DNA of 64,000 bases. It comes from Candidatus Omnitrophota bacterium (GTDB taxonomy: Bacteria > Omnitrophota > Gorgyraeia > Gorgyraeales > Gorgyraeaceae). Positions 9,103-64,000 of the stretch are shown piece by piece. Each line of letters opens with the position of its first letter. The stretch's first letter is position 1. The position numbers and the translations under genes were made by a program. The stretch spans positions 2,620 to 66,619 of the forward strand of contig JAUSEX010000031.1 in the NCBI GenBank assembly GCA_030649895.1, written 5' to 3'. The notes beneath the pieces are model-generated. The model saw only the letters and a program-made list of their open reading frames with translations. It searched no databases and was not told the origin of the DNA.

Positions 9103-9160
9103 CAATCAGCGTAAAATATATTCAATGAATAGCAAAGGAGCTGAAGGCGGAGGGTGAGAT

Positions 9161-17982: not shown

Positions 17983-17986
17983 AGGC

Positions 17987-19858: not shown

Positions 19859-19903
19859 TCGTAGGCTTGTTAGGCTAAGAATAAACTAGATAGTTAAAAT
19901 TAT

Positions 19904-29414: not shown

Positions 29415-29416
29415 CT

Positions 29417-41511: not shown

Positions 41512-41543
41512 TATCGCGGAACTTATACGGAAGAGATGAATGT

Positions 41544-41963
41544 ATGAAAAATAATATTGTTCGAGCGAGGCCCGAAGAGCAGAGTCGAGAACTGCGGAAA
41601 TTCGGGTTTAATATAGGTTTAGGTTTGAATATACTCGGATGCATAATGTTTTACAGGCGCAGGGAACATTTTATATGGCTTGCTGCTATCGGGTCCGCTG
41701 CCCTGGTTTCAGCTGTTTTATATCCGAAGGCCTTAAAGCCGCTAAAGAAGTTTTTAGACAAGCTGATTTTTATTATTGGCTGGCTCATGAGCGCGATAAG
41801 CATGTCGATAGTTTTTTATCTAATATTCACGCCAATAGCAATCTTGCTTAGAATTATTGGAAAAGACCTGCTTAATGAAAAAATGGATAAAAAAGCCGCT
41901 TCTTATTGGATCAAGAGAAAGGCAAGTATTTTTTCAGAAAAATCTTATGAACAGATGGGCTGA
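41544..41963 (+). CDS. small membrane protein, SxtJ-like (carbamoyltransferase-associated)
   Basis: Two TM helices. Gene order mirrors the sxtI-sxtJ arrangement; family assignment is from memory. An alternative TTG start at 41508 overlaps the upstream stop. Confidence 0.35.
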   Translation: MKNNIVRARPEEQSRELRKFGFNIGLGLNILGCIMFYRRREHFIWLAAIGSAALVSAVLYPKALKPLKKFLDKLIFIIGWLMSAISMSIVFYLIFTPIAILLRIIGKDLLNEKMDKKAASYWIKRKASIFSEKSYEQMG

Positions 41964-45597: not shown

Positions 45598-45621
45598 GAT
45601 TTATTTTATTAGATAGATAAA

Positions 45622-46656
45622 ATGGACATTAGCACGCAAAATATCAATGCAAATTTTAAAAGAAACGGATCAAATTCTATTTTTCCGAATTATTGCTGTT
45701 TTGTAATTACGCTTAAGTGTATAATGAAATGTAAAATGTGTCACATTTGGAGAGATAGTGGAAACATCTTAAACGAACTGACAATTCAAGAATGGAAAGA
45801 TGTTGTAAATTCTCTCAAGGGTTTTTTGGATACGAAATATGATATTATATTATCCGGCGGAGAGCCGCTTTTAAAGAAAGATATACTAGGTCTGGTAAGT
45901 TATATTGCAAAATCAGGGTACAGGGCATCTCTTGAAACAAACTCTTATCTTGTTGATGAAGAACTGGCCAGGGCAATCCAGGATTCAGGGTTGTGGAGAA
46001 TTTGTATTTCATTGGATAGCTTGGCTGAGGATACGCATGATTCATTAAGAGGAAGAAAAGGTTCGTATGGAAGGGTAATGAGAGGGATTGAATATTTAAA
46101 TAAGTTTTGTCCATCGGTCGGTATAAATATACAAACTACTATTATGGAGCAAAATTTAGATGAGCTTGCTAAGCTTGCTGAATGGGTAGCTAGTGATGAA
46201 CGATTAGATTATGTTTATTTCCAGGCAATAGTCCGTCCTTTTGGCACGCCTATGGATGAAAATTGGTTTAAAGGCGATCATTATGGGTTTTTATGGCCTA
46301 GCCATACAGATAAAGTAAATCTGGCTATAGAAGAGCTGATAAGAATTAAAGAAAATAATCCTAAAATTGCCAATACAGTTGCTCAGTTTAAGGCGTATAA
46401 GGCATATTTTAAAGACCCGGTTAACTTCGGTAATAACATAAAATGCACGATAGGTAACCGCGATATTAATATAAATCCATGCGGCGATGCATACCTTTGT
46501 TTTTCAAAAGATTCCATAGGCAATATAAAAAATAGAAGCATAGAAGAAATATGGTATTCAGAAAAGGCTGACAAGGTAAGAAATGAGATCATTGGCTGTA
46601 AAAAACATTGCCATTTTTTACTCAATTGTTCTTTTGAAAAGGGAGACTATTTTTAG
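45622..46656 (+). CDS. radical SAM protein with C-terminal Cys-rich (SPASM/twitch-like) domain, paralog 1 of 8
   Basis: 344 aa. YCCFVITLKCIMKCKMCHIW (CxxxCxxC), SGGEPLL glycine motif, C-terminal C-x12-C-x5-C...C-x3-C-x5-C (IGCKKHCHFLLNC). Confidence 0.8.
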   Translation: MDISTQNINANFKRNGSNSIFPNYCCFVITLKCIMKCKMCHIWRDSGNILNELTIQEWKDVVNSLKGFLDTKYDIILSGGEPLLKKDILGLVSYIAKSGYRASLETNSYLVDEELARAIQDSGLWRICISLDSLAEDTHDSLRGRKGSYGRVMRGIEYLNKFCPSVGINIQTTIMEQNLDELAKLAEWVASDERLDYVYFQAIVRPFGTPMDENWFKGDHYGFLWPSHTDKVNLAIEELIRIKENNPKIANTVAQFKAYKAYFKDPVNFGNNIKCTIGNRDININPCGDAYLCFSKDSIGNIKNRSIEEIWYSEKADKVRNEIIGCKKHCHFLLNCSFEKGDYF

Positions 46657-46679
46657 TAGATTTTTATCTAAAAATTATT

Positions 46680-47696
46680 ATGCAAGATAAGCCATTTAAT
46701 TTTTTAAAATCTCAAAGCAGCCTTTTAGATATACGAAAACCGGCATTTTGCTGTATAGGTATTTCTACAGGGTGCATTTTGAAATGCAAGATGTGTTCAG
46801 TGTGGAAAACCAAATATGTTGCTATGCCACAAGAACCTACTATGGATGAATGGTTTCGTTTTATCGAGCTTGCTGCCGGCTTAACGGAAAATTCTATCGA
46901 GATAAACGTTTCCGGAGGAGAGCCTTTATTAGATGAAAGAAATTTAGCGTTAGTTAAATTTAGCGCCAAAAAAGGACTTTCAACTTCTATGCCTACCAAC
47001 GGTTTTCTCATAGACAAAGAGATGGCTTATAAAATAGCAGATAGCGGACTAAGCGCGATAGGCATATCTTTGGATGGTATCAAAAAAGATACGCATGATT
47101 TTTTAAGAGGCGTAGAGGGATGCCATGACAAAGCAATGCAGGCGATTGACTATCTTGATAGATGCTGCGGAAATATAGGAATAGGAATTTTGACAACTAT
47201 ATCAGAGAAGAATATCGATGAAATTATTGAGCTAACCAGGTGGGCTAATGAAGACAATAGAATCGAAACTATTATTTTTCAGGCGGTAACTCAGCCATTT
47301 AATACTCCTTTTGACGATGAATGGCATGATAAAAGCGAATATAGTTTTCTCTGGCCGAAAGACATCAGAAAGACCCATGTCTTATTAGACGAGATAATAA
47401 AACTAAAAAAAATGGCGTATAAGATATCCAACACAGTTTCTCAATTGGAAACTTTTAAGAAGTATTTTGAAAACCCCTTGGGATTTATTAAAAAAGATGC
47501 GTGTAATGTGGATTTTTATATGAATATAAATCAATTTGGAGATGTATATATGTGTCCAAGAAAAAAAGCTGTAGGGAATATAAGAAAATGCACTCCAAAA
47601 GATATGTGGTATTCAGAAGGCGCAAATCAAATGAGAGAAGAAATAAAAAGCTGCAGAGTAAATTGTCATCATGTATTAAATTGTTGTTATGAATGA
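46680..47696 (+). CDS. radical SAM/SPASM-like protein, paralog 2
   Basis: 338 aa. FCCIGISTGCILKCKMCSVW, SGGEPLL, KSCRVNCHHVLNCCYE. Confidence 0.8.
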   Translation: MQDKPFNFLKSQSSLLDIRKPAFCCIGISTGCILKCKMCSVWKTKYVAMPQEPTMDEWFRFIELAAGLTENSIEINVSGGEPLLDERNLALVKFSAKKGLSTSMPTNGFLIDKEMAYKIADSGLSAIGISLDGIKKDTHDFLRGVEGCHDKAMQAIDYLDRCCGNIGIGILTTISEKNIDEIIELTRWANEDNRIETIIFQAVTQPFNTPFDDEWHDKSEYSFLWPKDIRKTHVLLDEIIKLKKMAYKISNTVSQLETFKKYFENPLGFIKKDACNVDFYMNINQFGDVYMCPRKKAVGNIRKCTPKDMWYSEGANQMREEIKSCRVNCHHVLNCCYE

Positions 47697-50600
47697 GGAT
47701 GGTGGTTATCGTATGAACAGCTGGACAGCAAAATTTAAGAATAAAATATATGCGTTCGAAAAGATATTCAAGCAAAAAAGGACAAGCTTTCGCACGATAT
47801 ATAATGGTACCTTAAGGCTCTTTCTGGATGAAAATAATAGGCTTAGGATATATTATAAAGACAATGAGCTTACAAAAGTCTCCGGTTTGAATACTAACAT
47901 ATTATCCGAAGCTAATTGGCATAGTTCGCTTGACTCTATAGTTAATAATATAGAAAAACTATCTTCTGAAGAGATGATTATCCATTTGAAGCATAGTCAG
48001 CTTCCTCTTGTGCAAGCTTGGCATCTGAAATGCAACTCAGAAGATACGCTTAGCTGGGAAGTAAATATGCATATAAAAAAACCGTTACGTATAGATTGTA
48101 TGAAAGCATCCTTGTTCTTATCCAAAGCTTATGAGGATTGGATAATTCCTGCCAAACAAGATACATTTCCTCCTTTTTCTGATTTTCAATGGAAAAGTAT
48201 GAATTCTTTTGAAGATAAAGCCGGCTTCATAGGCCTTGCTTCTTCCTTAGAAGAATTTCCTGGCATGTCTCTTAAAAGTTCTGATAACTCAAAAGCTTCA
48301 TTAATAATCCAAAATACCGATATAAATCTTTCTTCCCGTGTTCTTGAAATTCAATGCGAAGATAAAAAAGAATTCTACCAGCCCGGCACCTACTCTTTTC
48401 TTAAGGCCACAATACAGTTTTATCCTGATAAGAATGTTTTAAAAAATATTCTCAAAGAAATAAAGGAGCAGGAACAAAAGAAGCAGGACGAGCTAATGCT
48501 TCAAGAAGAAGAGCGCCTCAAAAAAGCCAAAGAGGAAGACCATAAGCTCCGCACCCTTCAAAGCGGCCCCTTTAGGCTCCATATAGACCAGCATAACAGG
48601 TTTCACCTCTATTATAAAGAACAAGAGCTTACCAAAGGAGTTGGTATTAATATGGGAATACTCTCTGAAGGTAATTGGTATGCTGCCTGTGATTCCAGAA
48701 TTGAAATAAAAAGGCCGTCTTCTAATAAGATGCTTGTACAGTTTATTTACAATAAGCTTCCTGTTATTTGCTCATGGCAGATAGATTTTAAGCCGGAAGG
48801 CGTGTTTACCTGGGTCATTGATATATCTTTTAAAGAATCTCTACGCATAGATCGAAGCAATGTTTCTTTATTCTTATCCAAATCTTACGATAATTGGATT
48901 GCTCCTCCTGAAGAAGGGAGTTTCAGCTCTTCATTCGGCCCAGGGTGGCAAAGGATGAATACTCACAAAGACAATGCTGAATTTACCGGATTATATTCTT
49001 CTTCAGAAGAATTTCCGGATGTGATTTGTAAAAGCTCAAAGGATTCAAAAGCTTCATTAATAATCCAAAATACCGATATAAATCTTTCTTCCCGTGTTCT
49101 TGAAATTCAATGCGAAGATAAAAAAGAATTCTACCAGCCCGGCACCTACCCTTTTCTTAAGGCCACAATACAGTTTTATCCTGATAAGAATGTTTTAAAA
49201 AATATTCTCAAAGAAATAAAGGAGCAGGAACGAAAGAAGCAGGAACAGGAACAAAAACGGCTTCAAGAATTAGAAAGGCTTAGACAGGAAGAAGAAAGGC
49301 TTAAGCAGGAACAGGAACAGAAGAAACAGGAAGAAAATCACAAACAGAATGAATTTAAAAAAATATACATGTTATTAAAAGAAGACGAAAAAGATTTTCC
49401 ATTAATCGAGGATAATGATGTGTATGTATATGGAGACTGCGAAGACTTGCATGACAAAATTGCTTCTCAACAAGGAAATTTTAATAATCTCATTTCAAGA
49501 ATAGAGACAGCCAAAAAAAAAGGTTTAAAGGTTAATATAAAAATAGGCGTATCGAAATTTAATTTTTTTAAGCTAGACACTATTATTCAATTTTATTCTA
49601 GATTGCTAAATAGCCGCATAGACCTGCGTTCTGTTTCTTTGAATTTTTTACCCGCAAAGAATATTTTTTATTATTTCGCCGAGTATATAAAACAATTAAA
49701 TATGCAGCTCGAATCGAGTAATATAGGGCTTTTCTTAAGAGACAAAGAGTTGCCCGGCCTTCTTTGGGCTATTTCTAGCCAAGCAGATCAATATAATGAG
49801 AAAGATTTATTGCGATTATTGGGAGTTATAACGGAGCACGCCTTTATTGGACCTCAAACTATCGTTCTAGATATTAATCATAGCTGTAATACTAATTGTA
49901 TACATTGTTGGATCCATACGCCAAAGCGTAAGGCCTCTCTACAGCTTAGTAATTTAAAGATGGACATCTCTTTATATAAAAATATTATTGATGATGCGGC
50001 AAATCTTTTATGTGACGAGATTATCATACAGGGAGATGGCGAGCCTCTTCTAGACGATAGATTTTTAGAAATGACCTGTTATGCGCGGGATAAGGGATTA
50101 AAAGTTTTATTTTTTACGAATGGCATACTTTTGGATAAAGAAAAAGCCGGTAGAATAATAGACTTGGAAGTAAACGAGATATTCTGCAGCCTTCCTGCAG
50201 GAACAGATAAGACTTATGCCTTGGTTAATCCGGGGCATTCAAAGGATACCTTTCATCATATAGCAGCGAATTTAAAAAATTTAAGCTTGATGAGAAAAAA
50301 ATCAGGAAAAAACAAACCATTATTACAAATGTCCCATGTTATCCATAACCTGAATTATCATGAGTTAGAAGAAATGGCTGAATTGGACGCTTATATAGGA
50401 GCGGATAAAACAAGATTTTATCTTGCCCGCTTAGATGAGAATATAGATTTTTTAAAATTAAGCCCTAGACATATTAAGATAATAAAAGAATCCCTAAAAA
50501 AGACAGCGCCCTATTTAAAAAGCAAGCACGTAGAATTACAAGACAATATATATTTTCAGCTAGAAAACTATAACTCTACAACAGGTTATTGGTCTAAAAA

Positions 50601-50910
50601 TGCGTTTTTAAAGTCTGGCTGTCCGGTGGGATGGTTTTTTTCTTTAATATTAGCCAAGGGTGAAGTAAGCATTTGCTGTCATTTGCGCGTTGTTGATCAT
50701 TTAAAACTCAAATCTTTTGAAGATATATGGAAATCTGAATCTTATAATAAATTCAGAAGTCAAGCCAAGTATTTAGCAAAAAACAAAAATATTGTTTTTA
50801 ACAATAATATGAAACTATATGATGAATTTTGCAATCATTGCGATACTCATCAGGTTATTTTAAGGATTTATGACTTGCTTCAAAAGTATAATCTGCATAA
50901 ATTTTTATAA
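47689..50910 (+). CDS. giant multidomain radical SAM/SPASM protein (2 novel bipartite modules + E/K/Q-rich coiled coil + rSAM core)
   Basis: 1073 aa. The N-terminal half has two copies of the Wzt-type module. A KEQEQKKQ.../RLQELERLRQEEERLKQEQEQKKQEE linker follows. The C-terminus carries CNTNCIHC (CxxxCxxC), GDGEPLL, and a Cys-rich tail (CPVGW...ICCH, CNHCD). Confidence 0.8.
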   Translation: MNEDGGYRMNSWTAKFKNKIYAFEKIFKQKRTSFRTIYNGTLRLFLDENNRLRIYYKDNELTKVSGLNTNILSEANWHSSLDSIVNNIEKLSSEEMIIHLKHSQLPLVQAWHLKCNSEDTLSWEVNMHIKKPLRIDCMKASLFLSKAYEDWIIPAKQDTFPPFSDFQWKSMNSFEDKAGFIGLASSLEEFPGMSLKSSDNSKASLIIQNTDINLSSRVLEIQCEDKKEFYQPGTYSFLKATIQFYPDKNVLKNILKEIKEQEQKKQDELMLQEEERLKKAKEEDHKLRTLQSGPFRLHIDQHNRFHLYYKEQELTKGVGINMGILSEGNWYAACDSRIEIKRPSSNKMLVQFIYNKLPVICSWQIDFKPEGVFTWVIDISFKESLRIDRSNVSLFLSKSYDNWIAPPEEGSFSSSFGPGWQRMNTHKDNAEFTGLYSSSEEFPDVICKSSKDSKASLIIQNTDINLSSRVLEIQCEDKKEFYQPGTYPFLKATIQFYPDKNVLKNILKEIKEQERKKQEQEQKRLQELERLRQEEERLKQEQEQKKQEENHKQNEFKKIYMLLKEDEKDFPLIEDNDVYVYGDCEDLHDKIASQQGNFNNLISRIETAKKKGLKVNIKIGVSKFNFFKLDTIIQFYSRLLNSRIDLRSVSLNFLPAKNIFYYFAEYIKQLNMQLESSNIGLFLRDKELPGLLWAISSQADQYNEKDLLRLLGVITEHAFIGPQTIVLDINHSCNTNCIHCWIHTPKRKASLQLSNLKMDISLYKNIIDDAANLLCDEIIIQGDGEPLLDDRFLEMTCYARDKGLKVLFFTNGILLDKEKAGRIIDLEVNEIFCSLPAGTDKTYALVNPGHSKDTFHHIAANLKNLSLMRKKSGKNKPLLQMSHVIHNLNYHELEEMAELDAYIGADKTRFYLARLDENIDFLKLSPRHIKIIKESLKKTAPYLKSKHVELQDNIYFQLENYNSTTGYWSKNAFLKSGCPVGWFFSLILAKGEVSICCHLRVVDHLKLKSFEDIWKSESYNKFRSQAKYLAKNKNIVFNNNMKLYDEFCNHCDTHQVILRIYDLLQKYNLHKFL
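48290..48477 (+). repeat. intragenic near-identical direct repeat, copy 1 (copy 2 at 49046-49233)
   Basis: The two 188-nt copies differ at 2 positions (756-bp period). Flanking module sequence has diverged to ~50% amino-acid identity. Confidence 0.85.
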
Positions 50911-50922
50911 AGGATTTTAGCT

Positions 50923-53115
50923 ATGAAAATAGTCCTTGCTAATTTGCCATGGAATAGTTTTGGAAAAGTAGGGGTTCGGGCAGGTTCGAGATGGCCGCAT
51001 TTAAAAGGCCGTACTGAAAAGCATTATTTACCTTTTCCTTTTTTCTTGGCGTATACGGCAGCTTTGCTTAAAGAAAATGATTTTGACGTGAAGTTGATTG
51101 ATGCTATTGCCGAGAAAAGATCGTATAAGGGGTTTTTGGGCGACATAAAAAAACTTAAGCCGCGCATCCTTATCTGCGAAACTTCAACGGTTACCTTGGA
51201 GCATGATATAAAATTTTTAGAAAAGATAAAGAAAGAGGTTTCGGGTATTTTTTTTGTAATTTGCGGCCCTGATATCAATATAAGGCAACCTGCTTTTCTT
51301 GAAAAATATAGATTTATAGACGCTGTCCTTGCCGGAGAATACGAATTTACAGTTCTTGACTTGGTCAGGTGCATCCGGGAAAATAAGGAGTTAAATAATA
51401 CGCCGGGCATTATATATCGCGATTCAAATAATGTTAAGGTTAATCCATTCCGCCCCCTGATTAACCTGGATAAATTGCCATGGCCATTGAGAAAAGGGCT
51501 GCCTATGGGCATGTATAATGATACGCCAGGGGATATGCCTATACCGTCAGCGCAAATGCTTGCCAGCCGCGGTTGCCCTTATAGATGCAAATTCTGTCTT
51601 TGGCCTCAAGTTATGTATCAAAGCAATAGTTACAGGGCCAGGGATATAATTGACGTGGTGGATGAAATGGAATATTTAATAAAAGAGATGCATTTTAAAT
51701 CAATATATTTTGATGACGATACTTTCAATGTGGGCAAGGGTCGGATGTTAAAGTTGTGCGATGAGATAAAAAAGCGGAAGCTGGATATTCCTTGGGCAAT
51801 AATGGCAAGGGCTGATTTGATGGATAGGGAAATTTTAGAAAAAATGAGAGAGACAGGATTATTTGCGGTTAAGTATGGAGTAGAATCTGCGTCACAAGAA
51901 CTTTTGGATAATATAAATAAGAATATGGATATTAAGAAAACAGAAGAAATTATAAGGCTTACAAAGAAGCTGGGCATTAAAACTCATTTGACGTTTACAT
52001 TCGGCCTTCCCGGCGAAACTAAAGAAACTATACGAAAAACAATAGATTTTGCGTTAAGATTAGACCCTGCTACTATCCAATTTTCCATAGCTACGCCTTT
52101 TCCAGGGACATCTTTTTATGAAGAGATGATGGCGAAAGGCCATATTATTTCCGAAAATTGGACAGAGTATGACGGGAATCATAAAAGCGTCATAGGTTTA
52201 CCTGATACCACAAAAAAAGACCTTGAATTTGCCATAAGGTCTGCTTATAAAGAGTGGGCTGTTCATTGTTCTAGAAGAAATACATTTAAGAAATTAGGTT
52301 ATTACCAGTTAATGTCAAAATCATTAAAGGTGCATGGAATTTTTATAACATTTTTTAAGATTATAAGATTTTTAACACGATATTTGTTTCTATATCTCAA
52401 AGAAAAAATATTTTTTAAAAAAGAGATAGAAAATAAGACAAAAGAAAATGGCCTTAAAATCGGCAGATTAATATTAATATTTAATGGCAACGGCCTGGTA
52501 TTGTATTGGGATGATATGCGGTTGACGAAAGGAGAAGGTTTCGCAAGTTTATTTAGTTTTCAAGGAAAATTATCGCAAAAACTTTTTAATCAATGTTGGA
52601 ATTTTGAAAGGGTAAATAATAATGAGCTGTTACTTACAAGGAGCCAAGATGGCGTTGGTATGGATGAGACATGGAGGCTGAAGATTATAGATGAAAAGCA
52701 GATTGATTGGGAGATAGAGATTAATTTAAAGAATGAAATTGAATTTAGCGCCAAAAAGGCCATGCTTATTTTGTCAAGCAGGTATCGTACGTGGATAGAT
52801 AGCTGGGGCGAAGGCAGGTTCTATCCTATGACAGATTATAGAAATGTAGAATTAAGAAATCCTAGCACCGGTTTTATAGGGTTAAGAGGGCGCAAAAAAC
52901 TAAAAGGCCAACTGCCAACTATCTTGCTGGAATTATCAGGAAATAATGGCAGCTATTTACCTTTTATCAAAAATGCCAAGTCGATTTTTGGCGCCAGGGT
53001 GCTTGAGGCGCAGATAAAAAACTTCAACGGGCATGGTGAAAAATATTTGCCTGGCGCATATAAATTATTTTCTGGAAGAATAAAGATTGTAGAAGAAGAT
53101 TTTAGCAAGAGATAA
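50923..53115 (+). CDS. B12-binding radical SAM protein fused to a C-terminal novel bipartite module
   Basis: 730 aa. N-terminal 470 aa is paralogous to the 19904 gene (CPYRCKFC). The C-terminal ~220 aa (from GRLILIFNGNGLVLYWDD...) matches the Wzt/giant-rSAM module. Confidence 0.85.
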   Translation: MKIVLANLPWNSFGKVGVRAGSRWPHLKGRTEKHYLPFPFFLAYTAALLKENDFDVKLIDAIAEKRSYKGFLGDIKKLKPRILICETSTVTLEHDIKFLEKIKKEVSGIFFVICGPDINIRQPAFLEKYRFIDAVLAGEYEFTVLDLVRCIRENKELNNTPGIIYRDSNNVKVNPFRPLINLDKLPWPLRKGLPMGMYNDTPGDMPIPSAQMLASRGCPYRCKFCLWPQVMYQSNSYRARDIIDVVDEMEYLIKEMHFKSIYFDDDTFNVGKGRMLKLCDEIKKRKLDIPWAIMARADLMDREILEKMRETGLFAVKYGVESASQELLDNINKNMDIKKTEEIIRLTKKLGIKTHLTFTFGLPGETKETIRKTIDFALRLDPATIQFSIATPFPGTSFYEEMMAKGHIISENWTEYDGNHKSVIGLPDTTKKDLEFAIRSAYKEWAVHCSRRNTFKKLGYYQLMSKSLKVHGIFITFFKIIRFLTRYLFLYLKEKIFFKKEIENKTKENGLKIGRLILIFNGNGLVLYWDDMRLTKGEGFASLFSFQGKLSQKLFNQCWNFERVNNNELLLTRSQDGVGMDETWRLKIIDEKQIDWEIEINLKNEIEFSAKKAMLILSSRYRTWIDSWGEGRFYPMTDYRNVELRNPSTGFIGLRGRKKLKGQLPTILLELSGNNGSYLPFIKNAKSIFGARVLEAQIKNFNGHGEKYLPGAYKLFSGRIKIVEEDFSKR

Positions 53116-53119
53116 TGAT

Positions 53120-54379: not shown

Positions 54380-54537
54380 TTTACAAAAGTTTGTTAAACA
54401 TTGCAAGGCAGGCGGGTTATTTTATGCTATTAGTAGAGGCGTTAAATATGTAACTTGGCGCAATAAATGTAAAAAAATGGGTATAGACTGTGGAAAATTC
54501 AGCAGAGAAAGATAGCTGTATTAAAAAAAGGTGATTT

Positions 54538-55587
54538 TTGGAATATCTTAAAGAGTTGCTCGGGACTAAAAAATGTTTCGATAGAAAGATATTGGAATTT
54601 TCCTGTTTTGGCATAACTGATGATTGTATCTTAAAATGCAAGATGTGCCATAAATGGAAAGAGGATATATTTATTAAAAAAAAGGCAAAGATCCCCTCTT
54701 TGAAAGATTGGAAGAATTGCGTTAGTTCTATTAGGGGCATCACTGATGATTCTTTTCAGATAAACTTTGGCGGAGGAGAGCCATTTTTAAATAAAGATAT
54801 CTTGGAATTAGTCAGGTTCTGTAAATCAAAAAACTTTAAGACAAATATAGCTACTAATGGATATCTTATAGATCAAGAGATGGCTAAAAAGATAGCGGAT
54901 TCCGGATTGGACAGCGTTATCTTATCATTAGATAGTCTGGATGAAAATACGCATGATTATTTGAGAGGCGTAAAGGGTGTTTTTAGCAGAGTCATGGATG
55001 GCATGGCGCATCTCGATAAATATTGTAACGGTATTTATAAGGGCATATGCTGCGCGATATATGAAAAGAACTTAGATGGCATATTGAATCTTATGGAGTG
55101 GGTAGATAATGATTCCAGAATAAATTCCATTTATTTCATGGCTTGCATGCAGCCGAATAATACTCTGGTAGATCCGGGGTGGCATAAAAAAGATGAATTT
55201 AATTTTCTTTGGCCGAAAGATTCAAAAAAGATCTCTGGTGTAATAGACAAGCTTATAGAGCATAAAAAAAATAATTCCAAAATAACCAATCAAATTTGTC
55301 AATTAGAAGCATTTAAGTTATACTACCGGTGTCCGGAGAAATTTGTCAAGAATACAAAATGCAATATGGATAGAGCTGTTCATATCAGTTCTTGCGGCGA
55401 TATATTTCTTTGCTATAGATGGCCTTTATTAGGCAATATTCAGACAGATGATCTAGCCGAGGTCCTGGGCTCAGAAAAAGCCGGGCGTATAAAGCAAGAT
55501 ATAGCCGGCTGTAAAGATAACTGCCATTTTTTGCTTAATTGTTTTTTTAAAGATGAATATCCTTTTGAATCAGAAACCAAAAAATAA
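54538..55587 (+). CDS. radical SAM/SPASM-like protein, paralog 3
   Basis: 349 aa. FSCFGITDDCILKCKMCHKW, GGGEPFL, AGCKDNCHFLLNCFF. Confidence 0.8.
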   Translation: MEYLKELLGTKKCFDRKILEFSCFGITDDCILKCKMCHKWKEDIFIKKKAKIPSLKDWKNCVSSIRGITDDSFQINFGGGEPFLNKDILELVRFCKSKNFKTNIATNGYLIDQEMAKKIADSGLDSVILSLDSLDENTHDYLRGVKGVFSRVMDGMAHLDKYCNGIYKGICCAIYEKNLDGILNLMEWVDNDSRINSIYFMACMQPNNTLVDPGWHKKDEFNFLWPKDSKKISGVIDKLIEHKKNNSKITNQICQLEAFKLYYRCPEKFVKNTKCNMDRAVHISSCGDIFLCYRWPLLGNIQTDDLAEVLGSEKAGRIKQDIAGCKDNCHFLLNCFFKDEYPFESETKK

Positions 55588-55610
55588 ATTATATACGAAA
55601 GGAATTTTAA

Positions 55611-56669
55611 ATGAAAAGCAATGTTAAGAATAGCCTTACAAGGCAAGATGTGCCTGCGGTATTAAAACCAGGTTTTTGCTGTATAGGTATCGTTGATACG
55701 TGTATGTTAAAATGCCAGATGTGCCACAAATGGCAGGATGATCCTGGCACCATTGGTTTTTCTCAGCCTACTACTGACGAGTGGAAAATGTTTATCAGGC
55801 AGTTAAGAGACTTGGTGGATGAAGGGTTTGAGATTGATTTTGGAGGCGGGGAAGCTTTGATGAGAAATGATGTTTTGGATCTGGTATCTTATGCCAAGAG
55901 TTTAGGGTTTAGAAACGCCATAGCTTCAAATGGCTACCTTATTAATGAAGACATGGCAAAAAGGATAGTGGATTCCGGGTTAGACAGCATAGTTTTATCA
56001 TTAGACAGCTTAAAACCCGAGGTCCATGATCGAATGCGCGGTGTAAAAGGCGTTACAGAAAGGGTATTTAAGGCTATTGAATTCTTAAGAAAATATTCAA
56101 AAGATATACACATAGGGATATGCACGATAATAATGGAACAGAGCCTTGGCGGCATTATAGACTTGGCTGAATGGGTAAATACTAATAGGGACAAGATGAA
56201 CTCGATTCTTTTTATGGCTCCCATGCAGCAAAATAATACGCCTTTTGATCCTGGATGGTTCAAGAAAACAGAATATAATTTTATATGGCCAAAAGACAAT
56301 AAAAAAACCCAGAATGTCCTTGATGAGTTAATAAGACGCAGAAAATTGGGACATTGGATAGGCGATTCAGTGGTGCAATTAGAGGCTTTTAAAGCATATT
56401 TTGAAAACCCTGCCAGGTTTGTGAAAAAAAGCCCTTGCAATCTGGACAGGGCTATACATGCGAGTTCCATTGGTGATGTATTCTTTTGTTATCGTTACGG
56501 CCTTTTAGGCAATATAAAAAATGGGGATGATATAAGGGAAATATGGCATTCAGGATCAGCCGACAGGGTCAGGACTGATATTAAAAAATGCCAGCATAAT
56601 TGCCACTTTTTGCTTAACTGTTTTTTTGAAGGCGATTATCCCTTTACGGTAGGAGGAGAGGGGGGTTGA
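55611..56669 (+). CDS. radical SAM/SPASM-like protein, paralog 4
   Basis: 352 aa. FCCIGIVDTCMLKCQMCHKW, GGGEALM, KKCQHNCHFLLNCFF. Confidence 0.8.
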   Translation: MKSNVKNSLTRQDVPAVLKPGFCCIGIVDTCMLKCQMCHKWQDDPGTIGFSQPTTDEWKMFIRQLRDLVDEGFEIDFGGGEALMRNDVLDLVSYAKSLGFRNAIASNGYLINEDMAKRIVDSGLDSIVLSLDSLKPEVHDRMRGVKGVTERVFKAIEFLRKYSKDIHIGICTIIMEQSLGGIIDLAEWVNTNRDKMNSILFMAPMQQNNTPFDPGWFKKTEYNFIWPKDNKKTQNVLDELIRRRKLGHWIGDSVVQLEAFKAYFENPARFVKKSPCNLDRAIHASSIGDVFFCYRYGLLGNIKNGDDIREIWHSGSADRVRTDIKKCQHNCHFLLNCFFEGDYPFTVGGEGG

Positions 56670-56670
56670 A

Positions 56671-57717
56671 ATGCCTGATTCTTGCGAAGTAAGATCGGAG
56701 AAAGAAACTTTAAATGAAAAAAATGTTCTAAAACCCAGTTTTTGCTGTGTAGCTGCTACGGATTATTGTATGTTACGCTGCAAGATGTGCAATAAGTGGC
56801 ATGAACCTGCCCCAAAGAAAGAGGAGTTGCCTTCTTTGGATGAGTGGAAAAATTTTATAGCCGGTTTTAGAGAATTGGTAGACGAAGGTTTTGAAATGGA
56901 TTTTGGGGGAGGCGAGGCGTTATCGATGCCAGGCATATTGGATTTAGTAAAATTTGCAAAACTAAAAGGGTTTAGGACAACTATGGCTTCAAATGGGTAT
57001 CTTATTGATATGGATATGGCTAAGAGAATCGCAGATGCAGGATTAGATGCCGTAAGCTTGTCTTTAGATAGCTATAACCCTGAGGTTCACGATAAAATGA
57101 GGGGAGTTAAAGGCGTTCATCAGCAGGTAATGAATGCTATAGATAATTTGACAAAATATTCTCCGCAAACAAGAAAAGGCCTTTGCTGTATTATCATGAA
57201 CGAAAATTTGGATGAAATCCTCAATCTTGTTGATTGGGCAAATGGCAATAAAAAAGTAGACTGGATATATTTTATGGTAGTAGTCCAGCCTAATTATAGC
57301 GGGCCGTTGACAGATAACTGGGTGGATGAGTATCAATATCTCTGGCCTAAAGATAAATCAAAGGTGCTTGCTGTTCTAGACGAGCTTATAATGCGAAAGA
57401 AAAATGGCTCCAAGGTAAGCAATAGGGTAGAGCATCTCAGGGCATACAAGGCGTATTTTAACAATCCGCAGAAATTAGTAAATAAGGCCAGATGCATTGT
57501 TGGCGGCAAGGCAATAAGCGTTAATGCTTATGGCTTTGTCCAACTCTGTCTTTTTAAGGATTTTATAGGAAATATAAGGCAGAATGATATCAGGGAATTA
57601 TGGCGTTCTCAGGATGCAAATTTAATAAGAAAAAAAGTAGATGAGTGCAAGACAAATTGTCATTTGCTTCTTAATTGTTGTTATATAGAAGATGAACCGT
57701 CTCTCTATTCGGATTAA
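56671..57717 (+). CDS. radical SAM/SPASM-like protein, paralog 5
   Basis: 348 aa. FCCVAATDYCMLRCKMCNKW, GGGEALS, DECKTNCHLLLNCCY. Separated from paralog 4 by 1 nt. Confidence 0.8.
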   Translation: MPDSCEVRSEKETLNEKNVLKPSFCCVAATDYCMLRCKMCNKWHEPAPKKEELPSLDEWKNFIAGFRELVDEGFEMDFGGGEALSMPGILDLVKFAKLKGFRTTMASNGYLIDMDMAKRIADAGLDAVSLSLDSYNPEVHDKMRGVKGVHQQVMNAIDNLTKYSPQTRKGLCCIIMNENLDEILNLVDWANGNKKVDWIYFMVVVQPNYSGPLTDNWVDEYQYLWPKDKSKVLAVLDELIMRKKNGSKVSNRVEHLRAYKAYFNNPQKLVNKARCIVGGKAISVNAYGFVQLCLFKDFIGNIRQNDIRELWRSQDANLIRKKVDECKTNCHLLLNCCYIEDEPSLYSD

Positions 57718-57731
57718 ATATCCTTGACCAG

Positions 57732-58739
57732 ATGAACCAGGACTTTCTCGTTCGCAAGCCTAAATACTGCTGCTGGGTTCTTAATTATCGCTGTATGTTA
57801 AGATGCAAGATGTGCTACATCTGGAATATCAAAGACGATAAAAGCCAGGAAACTACCATGGAGGAGAAAAAGAAATTTGTCAAATCCTTGCGCGGCATGG
57901 TAGGCCCTGATTTTGAATTTCACTTATCAGGCGGGGAGCCTTTAATGACAGAGGGGGTTTTGGATTTAGTTAGTTTTATTGCTGATGAAGGATATAAGAC
58001 AAATATGGTTACAAATGGCTTTCTTATCGATGAAAAAATGGCAGAAGATGTTATGAATTCTAAACTGGGGAGCGTTACTATTTCATTAGATGGAATAAAT
58101 CCAGATACCCATGATTATATCCGAGGCGTAAATGGCAGCTATTCCAGGATAATGGAAGCTATCGAATATCTGGATAGGTCTAGAAAAGATAAAAGCCCGA
58201 AAATCTCCATGTTGACTGTTATAATGGAACGCAATTTAGATGAGCTGCTTGAGCTTGCAGAATGGGTTCAACAGGATAAGAGGTTAGAGATGATAAGCTT
58301 TCAGGCAATAAACCAGCCTTTTTGCGAAGATATGGATAAAGAATGGTTCAGAGAAAATAAAAATAGTTTTCTATGGCCTCAGGATAAAGCAAAAACCAGC
58401 TTTATTATGGAGAGGCTTAGAGAATTAAGGTTAAAAGGGAATAAAATAGGGAATCACCATAATCATTTTTTGCATTTCAGGGAATATTTTAAGGATCCGA
58501 ACACATTTTTAAAGAAGATAAAATGCAATCTTGGAGATTATGAGTTTCATGTTGATCCGTACGGGAAGATGTTTTTCTGCTCTTTTACAGATTCGATGGG
58601 AAATATAAAAAAAGATGATATAAATAAAATCTGGTATTCGCCGGAAACAAAAAAAATAAGGCAGGATGTGTATAATTGCCGCAGAAACTGCCATATAATG
58701 ATTAATTGTTTTTATGAAGATGAAGCCTGCATTACGTAA
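57732..58739 (+). CDS. radical SAM/SPASM-like protein, paralog 6
   Basis: 335 aa. YCCWVLNYRCMLRCKMCYIW, SGGEPLM, YNCRRNCHIMINCFY. Confidence 0.8.
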   Translation: MNQDFLVRKPKYCCWVLNYRCMLRCKMCYIWNIKDDKSQETTMEEKKKFVKSLRGMVGPDFEFHLSGGEPLMTEGVLDLVSFIADEGYKTNMVTNGFLIDEKMAEDVMNSKLGSVTISLDGINPDTHDYIRGVNGSYSRIMEAIEYLDRSRKDKSPKISMLTVIMERNLDELLELAEWVQQDKRLEMISFQAINQPFCEDMDKEWFRENKNSFLWPQDKAKTSFIMERLRELRLKGNKIGNHHNHFLHFREYFKDPNTFLKKIKCNLGDYEFHVDPYGKMFFCSFTDSMGNIKKDDINKIWYSPETKKIRQDVYNCRRNCHIMINCFYEDEACIT

Positions 58740-59982
58740 AACATTTTTTATAACAGTGCCAGCCGTATTGATTTTTCTCATCGTGCTGGAGTTATGCTTG
58801 AGGATGTGCGGGTATTTATATATACAGCGTCACAATCATGAAGCGCATACCAAAACAACGGAATTAAGTAAGGATAAACTCAGGATTCTTTGCTTGGGAG
58901 ATTCTTTTACTTTTGGCGTGGGGTCTAGTCCTGAAAACAATTATCCAAAGCAGTTAGAAAGAATATTGCAGGAAAATATCTCTGAGAAAATAAGCGTTAT
59001 TAATGGGGGCCGCCTTGCCAATACTTCATCGTTACTCTTAAAAAATTTACAAGAAAATATTAATAAATATTCTCCGTCTATCATAGTTGTAATGATAGGA
59101 ATGAATAATAGTTGGAACTTAGAAGGCAGCAGTTATTTTTTGTTAAATAGCAGCATAGGTTTACTGGAAAGACTGGAAAGAATGTCAAGCTCTTTCCGTA
59201 TATACAAATTATTAAAGATAGGATGGGTTAATTTTAAATATAAAATAGATGGAAATAAGAAAATAGCTTCTGCTAATAATTCGATTCGGAAAATAAAACC
59301 TGAATCATTAGAGTTATCCGCTATTGGCAATGAATTATTCTTAAAAGGGGAGTATATCCTGGCTATAGAGAAGTTGCAGGAGTCATTAAAAATAGATAAC
59401 AACAACTACGATGCGTATTTATTTTTAGCAGGTATGCGAAATACTCAGAAAGAATTTCAATTAGCTGAAAAAGAGATATGGCAAGCTATTAATTCGATAG
59501 ATGAATGGGACGATCATCTTATCTGCACAGTGCTTCTAGCCATCAATAGGCTTGGCGATAAGAAAGAAGCAGAATTAGTAAAACTGAAATCGTATTTTAA
59601 AAGTAAATATTATGGGAATAAAAAGAGCAGGCTACTTAAGATAATAGAGGCAGATTTAGATTTTTCAAAAAAAGAAACCATATCTAAAGTGCTGGAATAT
59701 GATTTGGAACGGATAGTTAGGTTGGCTAGGGAGAACAGAGTAACGCTTATTTTGCAGACTTATCCAAGGAGCATACTTGAGAATATTACTATAGAAACAA
59801 TAAGCCGAAAATATAATAGTTGCTTAGCAAACAACGAAATAATATTTAAAGAAAAGGCTCGAAGCGATTTTTTTGTTGCCGATGGCCATTGTAATGAGAA
59901 AGGATATGAATTAATTGCGGAAAATGTGTATGATATTTTGGTTAAAGAAGAAATGTTACCTAGAAAAAGAACAGGAGAATAG
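58714..59982 (+). CDS. membrane-anchored SGNH/GDSL-family hydrolase with TPR-like C-terminal region
   Basis: 422 aa. N-terminal TM, then GDSFTFGVG (GDS-x block I) and later SGNH blocks. Overlaps paralog 6 by 26 nt. Confidence 0.6.
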   Translation: MKMKPALRKTFFITVPAVLIFLIVLELCLRMCGYLYIQRHNHEAHTKTTELSKDKLRILCLGDSFTFGVGSSPENNYPKQLERILQENISEKISVINGGRLANTSSLLLKNLQENINKYSPSIIVVMIGMNNSWNLEGSSYFLLNSSIGLLERLERMSSSFRIYKLLKIGWVNFKYKIDGNKKIASANNSIRKIKPESLELSAIGNELFLKGEYILAIEKLQESLKIDNNNYDAYLFLAGMRNTQKEFQLAEKEIWQAINSIDEWDDHLICTVLLAINRLGDKKEAELVKLKSYFKSKYYGNKKSRLLKIIEADLDFSKKETISKVLEYDLERIVRLARENRVTLILQTYPRSILENITIETISRKYNSCLANNEIIFKEKARSDFFVADGHCNEKGYELIAENVYDILVKEEMLPRKRTGE

Positions 59983-59986
59983 AATA

Positions 59987-61045
59987 ATGGCAGATAAAAT
60001 AAAAGAGAATTTAAGCAAGACAATTGTTTTACCCGCATTTTGCCTTTTGGTTGTTTCTAAAATATGCAATTTTAGATGTAAGATGTGCAATATGTGGAAG
60101 AATAAAGAACGCGGTATAGACAGGAAAGAACTTACCATGGAAGAGATGAAAGGTTTTGTAGATGATTTGAAGAATGTTACTACAGAGCCTATCTTTATTC
60201 ATCTTATAGGAGGAGAGGCATTATTAAGAAAGGATTTAACGGAGATCGTATCTTATATAAAGAAAAGCGGCTTTAATAGCTCTATTACTACGAATGGATA
60301 TTATATTGATGATGAGATGGCGAAAAAGTTAGTTGAATCAGGGCTTAAAGGAATATTTCTTTCTCTGGACGGTTTTGAGGAAGATACCCATGATTATCTG
60401 CGAGGCGTTAAAGGCAGCTATAGGCGCGTGATGGATGCTATTGAATTATTGGATAAAAATAGGGGAGACGATAAGTTGAATAGGTTAAGTATCGGCATAA
60501 CTATGACGCTTATGGAGAAGAATTTGGACGAGGTGTTGGATTTGGCTGAATGGGCAAATAACAATGAAAAGATAAACGATTTATTTATTAATGCATGTTT
60601 GCAGCCATTTGACGCCGATGATCATGAAAGAGAATGGTTTAAAAATAGAAAGAATAGCGATGTCTGGCCGCAGGATATAGAAAAAGTTTGCGCTATCTTA
60701 GAAAAGTTGGCTTTGTTAAAGGAAAAGGGTTATAAGATTTGCAATCCTCCGAAACAACTGAGGCTGGTCAAGGAGTATTTTAAAAACCCCTATAGATTTA
60801 TACATGACAGTAAAATAAAATGCCCAAGGGGAGACTTGGCTCCGGAAATAAACGCTTATGGAGATATAAATATGTGTTTTTGTATGCCGCCTGTTGCAAA
60901 CATAAGAGAGAAGAAGTTTTCAGAGGTATGGTATTCCAGGGAAATGGAGGACGTAAGAAATGAAATAAATAAATGTAAGAAAGATTGCGATATAGCTGTA
61001 AATTGCTTCTATAAAATTGAAAATATAACCGATTATGTTAAATAA
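59987..61045 (+). CDS. radical SAM/SPASM-like protein, paralog 7
   Basis: Start moved to ATG 59987 (MADKIKENL) with an AGGAG RBS 9 nt upstream. The track start 59915 overlaps the SGNH gene. AFCLLVVSKICNFRCKMCNMW, IGGEALL, NKCKKDCDIAVNCFY. Confidence 0.8.
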   Translation: MADKIKENLSKTIVLPAFCLLVVSKICNFRCKMCNMWKNKERGIDRKELTMEEMKGFVDDLKNVTTEPIFIHLIGGEALLRKDLTEIVSYIKKSGFNSSITTNGYYIDDEMAKKLVESGLKGIFLSLDGFEEDTHDYLRGVKGSYRRVMDAIELLDKNRGDDKLNRLSIGITMTLMEKNLDEVLDLAEWANNNEKINDLFINACLQPFDADDHEREWFKNRKNSDVWPQDIEKVCAILEKLALLKEKGYKICNPPKQLRLVKEYFKNPYRFIHDSKIKCPRGDLAPEINAYGDINMCFCMPPVANIREKKFSEVWYSREMEDVRNEINKCKKDCDIAVNCFYKIENITDYVK

Positions 61046-62012
61046 GAGCCCAAAAACCTGTCTTCTGACTGTAACAAATAATTGTGTTTTGCGCTGCAAA
61101 ATGTGCCATCTATGGCAGCTTAATACCGCAGAAAATGAAGTTAATATAGATGACTGCAAAAGATTAATAGATTCTTTTAAGGGGTTTGGGCCAGAACCTG
61201 TAGAGGTGCATATTATTGGAGGAGAATCCTTGATTAAAAAAGGAGTATTAGACTTGATCTCGCATATAAGCAACAAAGGATCTAGGACTGTTATGACTTC
61301 ATGCGCATATACTATAGATGAAACAATGGCAAAGGCAATTGCCGGATCTGGTTTAAATATGTTAAATATATCCATAGATAGCTTAAACCCATTAGTTCAT
61401 AATTTTTTAAGAGGGCGAGATGATTCTTTTCAGCGCGCAATGAGCGCAATTGATTATCTGAGTAAGTATAAAGATAATAGACTGAGATTAGGTATCAACA
61501 CTGTTATTTCAGCAAAGAATTTAGATGATATAGTTGGATTAAGCGAGTGGACACTAGGTAATAAAAATCTGGATTCTATTTATTTTATGGCAGTAATGAG
61601 GCCTTTTGGCTCTAACCTGGACTGGCATTGGTTTAAAAAAGAGGAATATAAGGATCTCTGGCCTTTGGATTATTCTAAAGTTGAACTAGTATTAGATAAA
61701 CTCATTACTTTAAAAAACAAAGGCTCTAAGATAGGGAATCCTGCAAGTCAATTAGAGGTCTTTAAGACATATTTTAAAAATCCTTTCGATTTTATAAAAG
61801 TCAATAGGTGCAATGTTTCTGAGCAAGCCCTTAATATAAACGCATTAGGCGATGTTTATCTTTGTTTTTTTATGGAAAAATTGGGCAATATCAAAGAACA
61901 TAATGTGGCGCAGCTTTGGAATTCCGATAAGGCGCAAAAGATCCGCGCCCAGATGCGCTCCTGCAGGAATAATTGCGAATTAGTAGTGAATTGTTATTAT
62001 GAGGAAAAATAA
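61035..62012 (+). CDS. radical SAM/SPASM-like protein, paralog 8
   Basis: 325 aa. KTCLLTVTNNCVLRCKMCHLW, IGGESLI, RSCRNNCELVVNCYY. 11-nt overlap with paralog 7. Confidence 0.8.
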   Translation: MLNKSPKTCLLTVTNNCVLRCKMCHLWQLNTAENEVNIDDCKRLIDSFKGFGPEPVEVHIIGGESLIKKGVLDLISHISNKGSRTVMTSCAYTIDETMAKAIAGSGLNMLNISIDSLNPLVHNFLRGRDDSFQRAMSAIDYLSKYKDNRLRLGINTVISAKNLDDIVGLSEWTLGNKNLDSIYFMAVMRPFGSNLDWHWFKKEEYKDLWPLDYSKVELVLDKLITLKNKGSKIGNPASQLEVFKTYFKNPFDFIKVNRCNVSEQALNINALGDVYLCFFMEKLGNIKEHNVAQLWNSDKAQKIRAQMRSCRNNCELVVNCYYEEK

Positions 62013-63624: not shown

Positions 63625-63688
63625 GTAATTTCAGATTCTGTGACATTAAAGCTTTCAATTAAGATGCCTGGTTGAGATCGGAACCAAA

Positions 63689-64000
63689 CTTGAAAACAAA
63701 GAATCTAGTTATTTTAAGAGTTCTATTATTTATTTTATTAGTAGTAGGATTTTTAGCCTTGTGTGTTTTTGTAAAAAGACCTTTCCAAGAGCCTGAATTC
63801 AATGTTACAGAGAAAACCGACCTATCTTTAGATATTAAAATAAGCCAAGATGACATCTCTTCCTGCAGAGATTTTATTAAGAACAATGAGCGATACCGAA
63901 AGCCAATATCAAAGGCAAAATTTTCAAAGCAGATCAACGATGCTCAGGGCTATTTAAAAGCTCACCCTTCGGGTAAGATCGCTAAGGATTTAAGAAAAAC
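63689..64000 (+). CDS. partial hypothetical membrane protein (TTG start, runs off window end)
   Basis: Open frame with no ATG. LKTKNLVILRVLLFILLVVGFLALCVFV is TM-like. The minus-strand track ORF 63659-63937 overlaps it and is less plausible. Confidence 0.25.

Follow-up and report, generated by a model that had tools for sequence, protein, structure and literature searches.

Paralogous radical SAM/SPASM enzymes share an operon with a Wzm/Wzt-type exporter in Candidatus Omnitrophota

Within a 64,000-nucleotide stretch of DNA from a Candidatus Omnitrophota metagenome-assembled genome (contig JAUSEX010000031.1; the whole stretch is called the window here), positions 45622 to 62012 encode eight paralogous radical S-adenosylmethionine (rSAM) enzymes, which we name paralogs A to H. 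All eight belong to a single operon that also encodes a Wzm/Wzt-type ATP-binding cassette (ABC) exporter, and we judge the chances to be slightly in favor of their being cytoplasmic radical tailoring enzymes for a polyprenyl-diphosphate-linked glycan that is held by a shared domain, domain X, and exported by Wzm/Wzt. The strongest argument available for this reading is that the exporter, radical enzymes and glycosyltransferases of the GT-C fold all carry domain X, which points to their handling the same glycan. The tailoring roles known for radical SAM enzymes concern peptides, cofactors, lipids and small sugar antibiotics; we know of no described Wzm/Wzt pathway with radical SAM tailoring enzymes, let alone with 11 of them.

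The eight paralogs and their distribution

The eight genes lie on the same strand, as follows.

45622-46656, + strand: paralog A, rSAM/SPASM, 344 aa (MDO8602984.1)
46680-47696, + strand: paralog B, rSAM/SPASM, 338 aa
54538-55587, + strand: paralog C, 349 aa, TTG start with a good Shine-Dalgarno sequence
55611-56669, + strand: paralog D, 352 aa
56671-57717, + strand: paralog E, 348 aa (MDO8602992.1), AlphaFold 2 (AF2) model with a mean confidence score (pLDDT) of 89
57732-58739, + strand: paralog F, 335 aa
59987-61045, + strand: paralog G, 352 aa
61035-62012, + strand: paralog H, 325 aa

Paralogs A and E are annotated as 'radical SAM protein [Candidatus Omnitrophota bacterium]'. An earlier, sequence-only reading of the region had described eight tandem rSAM paralogs of ∼340 aa, judged by eye to be ∼35–50% identical. 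The lengths (325–352 aa) agree with this description, as does the family assignment, with Pfam Radical_SAM (PF04055) matched at 72–93 bits (cutoff 29.5) and SPASM (PF13186) at 23.1–43.2 bits (cutoff 21.5) in 8/8 paralogs, and pairwise BLASTP identities among A–H range from 34 to 52%, with C/D (52%) and D/E (49%) as the top pairs. The genes do not, however, form one tandem run: they fall into three blocks, A–B, C–F and G–H, parted by three other rSAM genes (encoding 1073, 730 and 419 aa) and a 422-aa SGNH/TPR gene, for a total of 11 rSAM genes in the region.

In a MAFFT alignment of the eight sequences, the CX3CX2C motif (C33/C37/C40) and the GGE SAM-binding motif (G80-G81-E82) are invariant, as are five C-terminal cysteines arranged as C275-x12-G-x4-C293...C326-x3-C330-x5-C336. 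These Cys and GGE columns remain invariant after the addition of 73 database homologs, and C26 is near-invariant. The motif strings given in the sequence-only reading were thus approximate and not valid for all eight paralogs: CX3CX2C holds throughout, but the CC placed upstream of it is found in only 5/8 (C has SC, G and H have CL), and the five-cysteine tail holds throughout, but the spacing C-x12-C-x5-C occurs in A and C only.

The same reading had proposed an auxiliary domain of the SPASM/twitch type, which is supported both by the Pfam SPASM matches and by a profile of the C-terminal domain, which, searched against solved proteins, matched only BtrN (E 0.004). In this match C275, C293 and C336 of the paralogs correspond to C169, C188 and C235 of BtrN, which are three of the four cysteines that ligate its auxiliary cluster. 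NCBIfam N_Twi_rSAM scored 44–54 bits for the paralogs, against a cutoff of 170. The full seven-cysteine SPASM motif, CX9-15GX4C...CX2CX5CX3C...C, holds two auxiliary clusters. With five invariant cysteines the paralogs do not have this motif, and since the CX2C pair is missing, the C-terminal domain is best called an abridged SPASM or twitch-like module. At the other end of the protein, CX3CX2C begins at residues 17–33, and because at most 32 residues precede it, there is no room for an N-terminal recognition element (RRE) of the kind used on peptides that are made by ribosomes and modified after translation (RiPPs). The AF2 model of paralog E shows alternating beta and alpha elements; its N-terminal ∼15 residues are disordered, and the barrel begins with a strand that starts at residue 24.

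No curated NCBIfam model claims the family, the best matches being AhbD, NirJ and GeoRSP at 80–116 bits against cutoffs of 400–650. We considered several specific assignments and rejected them: a tetrapyrrole rSAM of the AhbD/NirJ type (81–116 bits versus 500–650, and no tetrapyrrole genes in the operon); GeoRSP (score far under the cutoff); RiPP maturase equivalogs (WgkB, StsB, AlbA, SkfB, PqqE, MftC and ScmE/F at 44–84 bits versus 265–850); the BlsE family TIGR04466 (57 bits versus 400, listed for paralog C only); and anSME, whose models are outside the top 25 NCBIfam hits of every paralog. An anSME assignment with cognate sulfatases nearby had been named beforehand as a finding that would overturn the glycan reading; no sulfatase was found among the scanned window open reading frames (ORFs), which comprise most of those of at least 120 aa.

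The best PDB sequence matches (SkfB, CteB, GDGT-MAS, MoaA and BlsE) cover the core domain only, at 52–72 bits, and the closest structures to the paralogs are the sugar-modifying rSAMs BlsE and BtrN. BtrN, a twitch-type 2-deoxy-scyllo-inosamine dehydrogenase (PDB 4m7s/4m7t), acts on a carbohydrate and matches the C-terminal Fe–S domain of the paralogs. BlsE, the cytosylglucuronate decarboxylase of blasticidin S biosynthesis (PDB 7vob), is only 17% identical to them, and it differs in acting on a soluble nucleoside sugar and in being encoded in an antibiotic cluster, outside any Wzm/Wzt operon and without a paralog array. The SPASM peptide and protein maturases (anSME, SkfB, CteB, SuiB and PqqE) are set apart in several ways: the paralogs lack an N-terminal RRE and the CX2C pair, reach no equivalog cutoff, and are accompanied by no sulfatase and by no peptide common to all loci.

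A profile search with the paralogs returned 454 proteins at E ≤ 1e-10 among word-index candidates, and the best 120 of these score 459–584 bits and are nearly all unnamed or labelled Omnitrophota, suggesting an uncharacterised enzyme family that is essentially Omnitrophota-specific. We scanned one genome per species with paralog E and obtained 17 loci, of which 11 are labelled Omnitrophota metagenome-assembled or single-amplified genomes. Orthologs of E are 70–94% identical across the 17 loci, and each locus holds 8–13 family members by combined hidden Markov model (HMM) and BLAST analysis. Orthologs of C-D-E-F-G-H are collinear at 60–90% identity, compared with at most 54% for the next-best window paralog. 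Clustering into orthogroups at a threshold of 55% places D, E and F in all 17 loci, G in 13 of them, and C and H in 7 apiece; after this core set comes a tail of additional orthogroups that varies between loci. Paralogs A and B are singletons in the 17-locus sample, yet a database protein (P0020) is 82% identical to A. In some loci, two-domain family fusions of ∼700 aa occur. The conserved identities and order of the orthologs indicate that the duplications are old and that each core paralog has been individually kept.

Residues that are fixed within orthogroups and differ between them (positions 28, 29, 31, 42, 172, 198, 200, 283 and 294 of E) map either to the twitch hairpin or to the ends of the beta strands that surround the rSAM cluster. 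By comparison with other TIM-barrel rSAMs, these positions probably fall where the substrate is usually contacted.

Domain X and the export operon

Domain X is a module of ∼230 aa that is present in six copies in the window, three on Wzt, two on the 1073-aa rSAM and one on the 730-aa rSAM.

About 43477-44166, 44197-44871 and 44902-45594, + strand: three domain X copies on Wzt (three domains by the domain X HMM)
47764-49188, + strand: domain X pair at the N-terminus of the 1073-aa rSAM
52423-53112, + strand: single domain X at the C-terminus of the 730-aa, B12-binding rSAM

Wzt is ∼940 aa long, and its C-terminal ∼700 aa consist of the three X copies. The likeness between this extension and the 1073-aa protein is evident from BLASTP alone (E 4e-29 and 2e-25, with a further X match at 1e-21). 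No Pfam model covers domain X. Modelled by AF2 from its six copies in the window, the domain is all-beta (pLDDT 83), and its invariant residues are mostly aromatic; on the basis of the model, domain X is predicted to have a galactose-mutarotase-like fold and to be a putative sugar-binding module.

Domain X is also rare. When 1.84 billion cluster representatives were searched exhaustively with HMMER, just 616 of them proved to contain it at E ≤ 1e-3, typically in 2–8 copies. Among 35 of the 616 that were sampled, the fusion partners were ABC_tran (11), Radical_SAM (9), PMT_2 GT-C (5) and sulfatase (1), and of the nine Radical_SAM fusions seven contain SPASM and two a B12-binding domain. One metagenomic protein of 819 aa (P0207) reads as a family rSAM fragment, X, a full family rSAM (393 bits) and an X fragment, and is the only case seen of an A–H-type enzyme covalently joined to X. 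The sulfatase fusion matches Pfam Sulfatase at E 3e-55, plus Phosphodiest and SGSH_C, a hint that some lineages may bind a sulfated glycan.

In known Wzm/Wzt pathways, the lipid-linked glycan to be exported is recognised by a module at the C-terminus of Wzt, and the canonical Wzt extension is a single small beta-sandwich carbohydrate-binding module. The operon resembles known Wzm–Wzt glycopolymer export systems (E. coli O9a; TagGH) in its ABC-2 permease, its C-terminally extended ATPase, its WecA-family primer and its glycosyltransferases. It differs from them in that Wzt has three tandem ∼230-aa supersandwich domains (2–7 X copies in related loci), and in that the same domain recurs on rSAMs and on GT-C.

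The operon spans 36159–63624 as one tight unit, with gaps between genes of −26 to +24 nt bar a 158-nt stretch before paralog C, so the small intergenic gaps noted earlier were borne out. Its order is GT4, WecA-like, FAD enzyme, carbamoyltransferase, SxtJ-like, Wzm, Wzt, the 11-gene rSAM region and GT-C. In addition to the eight paralogs, it comprises the following genes.

36159-37325, + strand: GT4-family glycosyltransferase, first operon gene (Pfam Glycos_transf_1 and Glyco_transf_4)
37322-38314, + strand: WecA/MraY-family polyprenyl-phosphate sugar-1-phosphate transferase, lipid-carrier priming (Pfam Glycos_transf_4, 111 bits)
38330-39655, + strand: FAD/NAD-binding protein of the amine-oxidase fold (PRK07208 family)
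39664-41511, + strand: NodU/CmcH-type carbamoyltransferase (Pfam Carbam_trans_N, 337 bits; Carbam_trans_C, 233 bits)
41508-41963, + strand: SxtJ-like small membrane protein, carbamoyltransferase companion (Pfam SxtJ, 37 bits)
41978-42760, + strand: Wzm-type ABC-2 permease (Pfam ABC2_membrane; top NCBIfam match the galactan exporter Wzm/RfbD)
42784-45597, + strand: Wzt-type ATPase with three tandem domain X copies (Pfam ABC_tran)
47689-50910, + strand: 1073-aa fusion of two X copies, K/E/Q-rich linkers, a ∼160-aa stretch and an rS2-type rSAM/SPASM
50923-53115, + strand: B12-binding rSAM, 730 aa, with C-terminal domain X (MDO8602987.1), closest to HpnJ
53120-54379, + strand: rS2-family rSAM/SPASM, 419 aa, paralog of the C-terminal part of the 1073-aa protein
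58714-59982, + strand: membrane-anchored SGNH/GDSL hydrolase or acyl-esterase with TPR, 422 aa (Pfam Lipase_GDSL_2; hydrophobic N-terminus)
61999-63624, + strand: GT-C fold (PMT_2/ArnT-like) polyprenyl-phosphate-sugar-dependent glycosyltransferase (Pfam PMT_2 and Glyco_transf_22)

The operon thus has the components of ABC-dependent glycan assembly, namely an ABC-2 permease and an ATPase with a C-terminal putative cargo-binding extension, together with the priming transferase (Glycos_transf_4) and glycosyltransferases (GT4, GT-C) of Wzm/Wzt loci. The nucleotide-binding domain of Wzt has TagH (207 bits) and Wzt/RfbE (148 bits) as its top NCBIfam matches, although all Wzm and Wzt matches (Wzm/RfbD, TagH, Wzt-RfbE) are under the equivalog cutoffs, as is the match of the WecA-like protein to NCBIfam WecA (64 bits). 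The FAD protein weakly resembles UDP-galactopyranose mutase and protoporphyrinogen oxidase. In a related locus (L001), the WecA-like gene is also 5′ of Wzm and the FAD-protein gene is again beside it. The carbamoyltransferase is a candidate capping enzyme, i.e. one for a chain-terminating modification read by the exporter.

All loci with sufficient upstream sequence have the same arrangement, in which Wzm and Wzt are followed by an rSAM-X, a B12-rSAM-X and an rSAM of the 419-aa type, and then by the family array. SGNH and extra B12-rSAM genes are interspersed in the arrays of related loci, and wherever the SGNH gene was detected (L002, L003, L004, L006, L015, L016 and L020) it stands between F and G. 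A second contig of this organism carries the operon further, with GDSL/TPR proteins, a heptosyltransferase-family GT9 and another rSAM. Inside the continued operon, downstream of the window and in the same organism, a 348-aa ORF (L019:7397-8443) and a 111-aa ORF (L019:10365-10700) have no significant Pfam match, and the former has no NCBIfam match either.

The sequence TTGACA-17-TAAACT lies within the 102-nt gap 5′ of the first operon gene at 36159. Scans of 45000–64000 for promoters (80 versus 75 expected) and terminators (16 versus 12 expected) gave numbers at chance.

Among the three interposed rSAMs, the 419-aa protein is 26% identical to the C-terminal part of the 1073-aa protein (E 1e-39). 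In the latter, the ∼160-aa stretch between X and the rSAM core (window 49200–49800, aa ∼500–715) has no family match; K/E/Q-rich low-complexity linkers precede it. The B12-rSAM has HpnJ as its best NCBIfam match, at 267 bits over residues 12–449 against a cutoff of 578. HpnJ is itself a B12-rSAM of hopanoid side-chain biosynthesis, for which contraction or rearrangement of a lipid-linked glucosamine ring has been proposed (PMC9204698). The window gene differs from it by the extra C-terminal X and by the lack of hopanoid genes nearby. The two X copies of the 1073-aa gene also share an internal 299-nt direct repeat (48190–48488 and 48946–49244) that is 87% identical and encodes one long stretch of unchanged amino acids, SKASLIIQNTDINLSSRVLEIQCEDKKEFYQPGTY...KNILKEIKEQE. 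The repeat points to a recent event of gene conversion or of partial duplication, with assembly collapse as an alternative.

Glycan tailoring and the competing readings

If the paralogs tailor a glycan, the process could proceed as follows. The WecA-like enzyme would start the glycan on the lipid carrier and GT4 would build it, after which the eight paralogs and the three further rSAMs would tailor the lipid-linked glycan. Domain X on the exporter and on two of the rSAMs would hold this same glycan for both editing and export. Each paralog would abstract a hydrogen from a different sugar position or residue, with epimerisation, oxidation or dehydrogenation, deoxygenation, decarboxylation and C–C or ring chemistry as candidate outcomes. 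The glycan, possibly carbamoylated, would then leave through Wzm/Wzt, and the SGNH enzyme and GT-C would finish it on the outer face. Such position-specific editing would explain why each paralog has its own orthologs, why the gene order is fixed and why the tail varies by lineage, and it fits the earlier suggestion of position-specific or iterative modification. The concept, offered here as an analogy and shared at that level only, is that of post-assembly polymer editing: the alginate C5-epimerases AlgE1-7 and the rSAM epimerases PoyD and AviX12 are cases in which an assembled polymer or oligosaccharide has its residues edited by several paralogous enzymes or by a single radical enzyme.

Several points weigh against this reading. 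We infer the substrate from gene context, and likewise the membrane side of each step and the types of reaction. Paralogs A–H do not themselves carry domain X in the window, and the single family–X fusion, P0207, comes from another metagenome. There are few glycosyltransferases and no nucleotide-sugar genes at the locus. Lastly, a conserved 49-aa ORF directly 5′ of paralog C, described below, could be a peptide substrate.

More tentatively, the glycan-tailoring reading can be extended to the phylum, where a surface polymer of Omnitrophota might be made by radical editing on a cytoplasmic line of 10–16 rSAMs. The line would have D-E-F-G(-H) as its core, variable extras and docking through X, and the 49-aa protein would be a docking subunit or a product-incorporated peptide in one clade. 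We regard this fuller version as possible rather than probable.

A rather unlikely alternative is that the rSAMs act on soluble precursors, turning a nucleotide-sugar, nucleoside-sugar or cyclitol into an exotic monomer that is then transferred and exported. BlsE, BtrN, DesII and AprD4 carry out rSAM sugar steps in antibiotic pathways. In accordance with this alternative, the nearest relatives of the paralogs, BlsE and BtrN, act on small soluble sugar derivatives (PMC3715490), and aldose-1-epimerase-like folds bind monosaccharides. Moreover, the locus has no conventional nucleotide-sugar modification genes, so the chemistry of its monomers needs another source. However, X is multimerised on the exporter and is present on GT-C, as would suit a ligand that is polymeric or lipid-linked and is met on both membrane faces, and it would be unprecedented for one monomer to pass through 8–13 radical steps in succession. 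The variable paralog tail also looks more like serotype-style decoration.

The 158-nt gap before paralog C bears on a different alternative. The sequence-only reading had given 12 aa as the longest ORF in this gap and had concluded that no precursor peptides are encoded, a premise that is factually wrong, as the gap is filled by a conserved small protein.

54366-54515, + strand: 49-aa basic, aromatic-rich small protein (Q7O04_03975), ATG start, sequence MAETNLQKFVKHCKAGGLFYAISRGVKYVTWRNKCKKMGIDCGKFSRER

This ORF overlaps the end of the gene for the 419-aa rSAM, opening 14 nt ahead of its stop codon. Its product has a net charge of about +9 and many aromatic-x-basic motifs, and has no Pfam match. 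By tblastn, the ORF is found at the same position in six genome loci at 55–72% identity, and two more metagenomic contigs have it likewise placed, so that it is conserved in nine loci overall. Pairwise nucleotide differences at codon positions 1/2/3 number 191/156/469, which is a coding signature, and a strong Shine-Dalgarno sequence precedes every copy. Relatives in the databases form 28 clusters of 40–57 aa, all of them stand-alone Omnitrophota 'hypothetical proteins'. Rfam gave no match over 36000–64000, so the gap holds coding sequence and no known RNA element.

Such a protein raises the possibility of a RiPP-like pathway, in which the 49-aa protein is a precursor modified by paralog C, the 419-aa rSAM and perhaps others, and the ABC transporter exports a (glyco)peptide. 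Its size, its place between two rSAM/SPASM genes and its aromatic-x-basic motifs are consistent with this. We nevertheless hold the pathway to be unlikely for the array and keep it as a minority rival, for the sub-module made of the 419-aa rS2 rSAM, the small ORF and C. The ORF occurs only in loci having the C orthogroup, directly 5′ of paralog C in 9/9 of them, and at least nine loci retain D-E-F-G(-H) without it, which makes it an unlikely common substrate. It is adjacent to the array, as a precursor would be, but no leader–core architecture was identified: conservation is even along its length (55–76%), with no evident leader/core split, and there is no protease in the cluster genes scanned. 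Neither an RRE/PqqD domain nor a separate protein of this type was found by Pfam in the scanned cluster genes, with the ∼160-aa region of the 1073-aa protein not checked for RRE-likeness. In addition, no NCBIfam RiPP-maturase model reached its cutoff, and the transporter belongs with Wzm/Wzt/TagH rather than with peptide exporters.

Further evidence comes from locus L017, which has no free ORF. Instead, positions 5–29 of the 49-aa protein (∼25 residues) align to the N-terminus of an X-fused rSAM, MNNYQKFKEYLSYGGFYYALWRGIKYF.

L017:4841-7096: X-fused rSAM with a small-protein-like N-terminus

In this fusion the small protein acts as an enzyme module, indicating that it behaves like a docking or membrane-interface element rather than a substrate. 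In the L017 protein the motif recurs, in weaker form, after the X domain (aa 346–364). A likeness seen by eye to the N-terminus of the 1073-aa protein and to the linker of the B12-rSAM was rejected, as HMM scores were below 0 and only the L017 N-terminus was matched. We also rejected a double-glycine leader (GG at residues 16–17), given that the hydrophobic positions are off consensus and that a C39 peptidase is lacking, the one C39-family match nearby falling on the TPR portion of a downstream protein. Taken with X on Wzt, rSAMs and GT-C, the conserved operon, BlsE and BtrN as nearest structures and the lack of room for an RRE, these results favor a glycan over a RiPP substrate, as the sequence-only reading had done on its mistaken premise.

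It is very unlikely that the rSAMs instead modify the polyprenyl carrier or a membrane lipid, by cyclisation, cross-linking or methylation, with the ABC-2 transporter moving the lipid. There are precedents for lipid tailoring in Tes/GDGT-MAS, GrsA/B, HpnR and the proposed ladderane enzymes. Matches to such families are far under the cutoffs, however, and fatty-acid, isoprenoid and squalene genes are absent from the locus. The fold of X is of a carbohydrate-binding kind, its fusion partners include glycosyltransferases, and even HpnJ is proposed to work on a sugar head group. Finally, we find it hardly credible that the paralogs are protein, cofactor or metalloenzyme maturases (anSME, AhbD/NirJ-type) that lie beside glycan genes by chance, as their scores are 4–6 fold under the equivalog cutoffs, there are no sulfatase, heme or d1 genes among the scanned ORFs, and the tight phylum-wide linkage to Wzm/Wzt argues against coincidental placement.

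Significance and other features of the window

Omnitrophota is a phylum of mostly ultra-small uncultured bacteria. Literature searches on Omnitrophota rSAMs, on rSAM/SPASM glycan tailoring and on Omnitrophota lipopolysaccharide or O-antigen found no description of the locus. While the rSAM superfamily and the Wzm/Wzt export pathway are already known, the enzyme family, its ordered 8–13-member arrays, the link through X between exporter and rSAMs, and the small protein appear undescribed in the literature searched. One survey reports 'ladderane-like' biosynthetic gene cluster calls in Omnitrophota (PMC9902471), which could be automated labels for loci like the window operon. More generally, loci of this type may be misread as RiPP or 'ladderane' clusters when genomes are mined automatically.

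If glycan tailoring is correct, the locus would combine a new enzyme family with a new carbohydrate-binding domain that physically couples tailoring to export, and it would predict unusual envelope chemistry for a widespread uncultured phylum. The product could represent a new class of glycan chemistry, with C–C links, carbocycles or epimer patterns beyond conventional sugar enzymes, and would be a glycan counterpart to heavily rSAM-edited RiPPs such as the polytheonamides. Comparing the ∼8–13 diverged orthologous enzymes could then show how rSAM/twitch scaffolds choose C–H bonds on sugars.

Elsewhere in the window, a second glycan patch (14165–22866) comprises a GT-C (PMT_2, 14165–15940), a TPR protein (15937–17982), a GT2 (17987–18958), a B12-binding rSAM (19904–21337) and a GT9 heptosyltransferase-family gene (21664–22866). 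A type IV pilus or type II secretion-like set at 3208–10387 includes PilM-like, secretin, PilB/T2SSE ATPase and PilC/T2SSF genes, followed by several ORFs of 120–200 aa that are possible pilins. Just 5′ of the glycan operon are the housekeeping genes dnaG and rpoD (27654–31027), and a stand-alone gene of the RNase H/RVT_3 type lies at 33547–33975.

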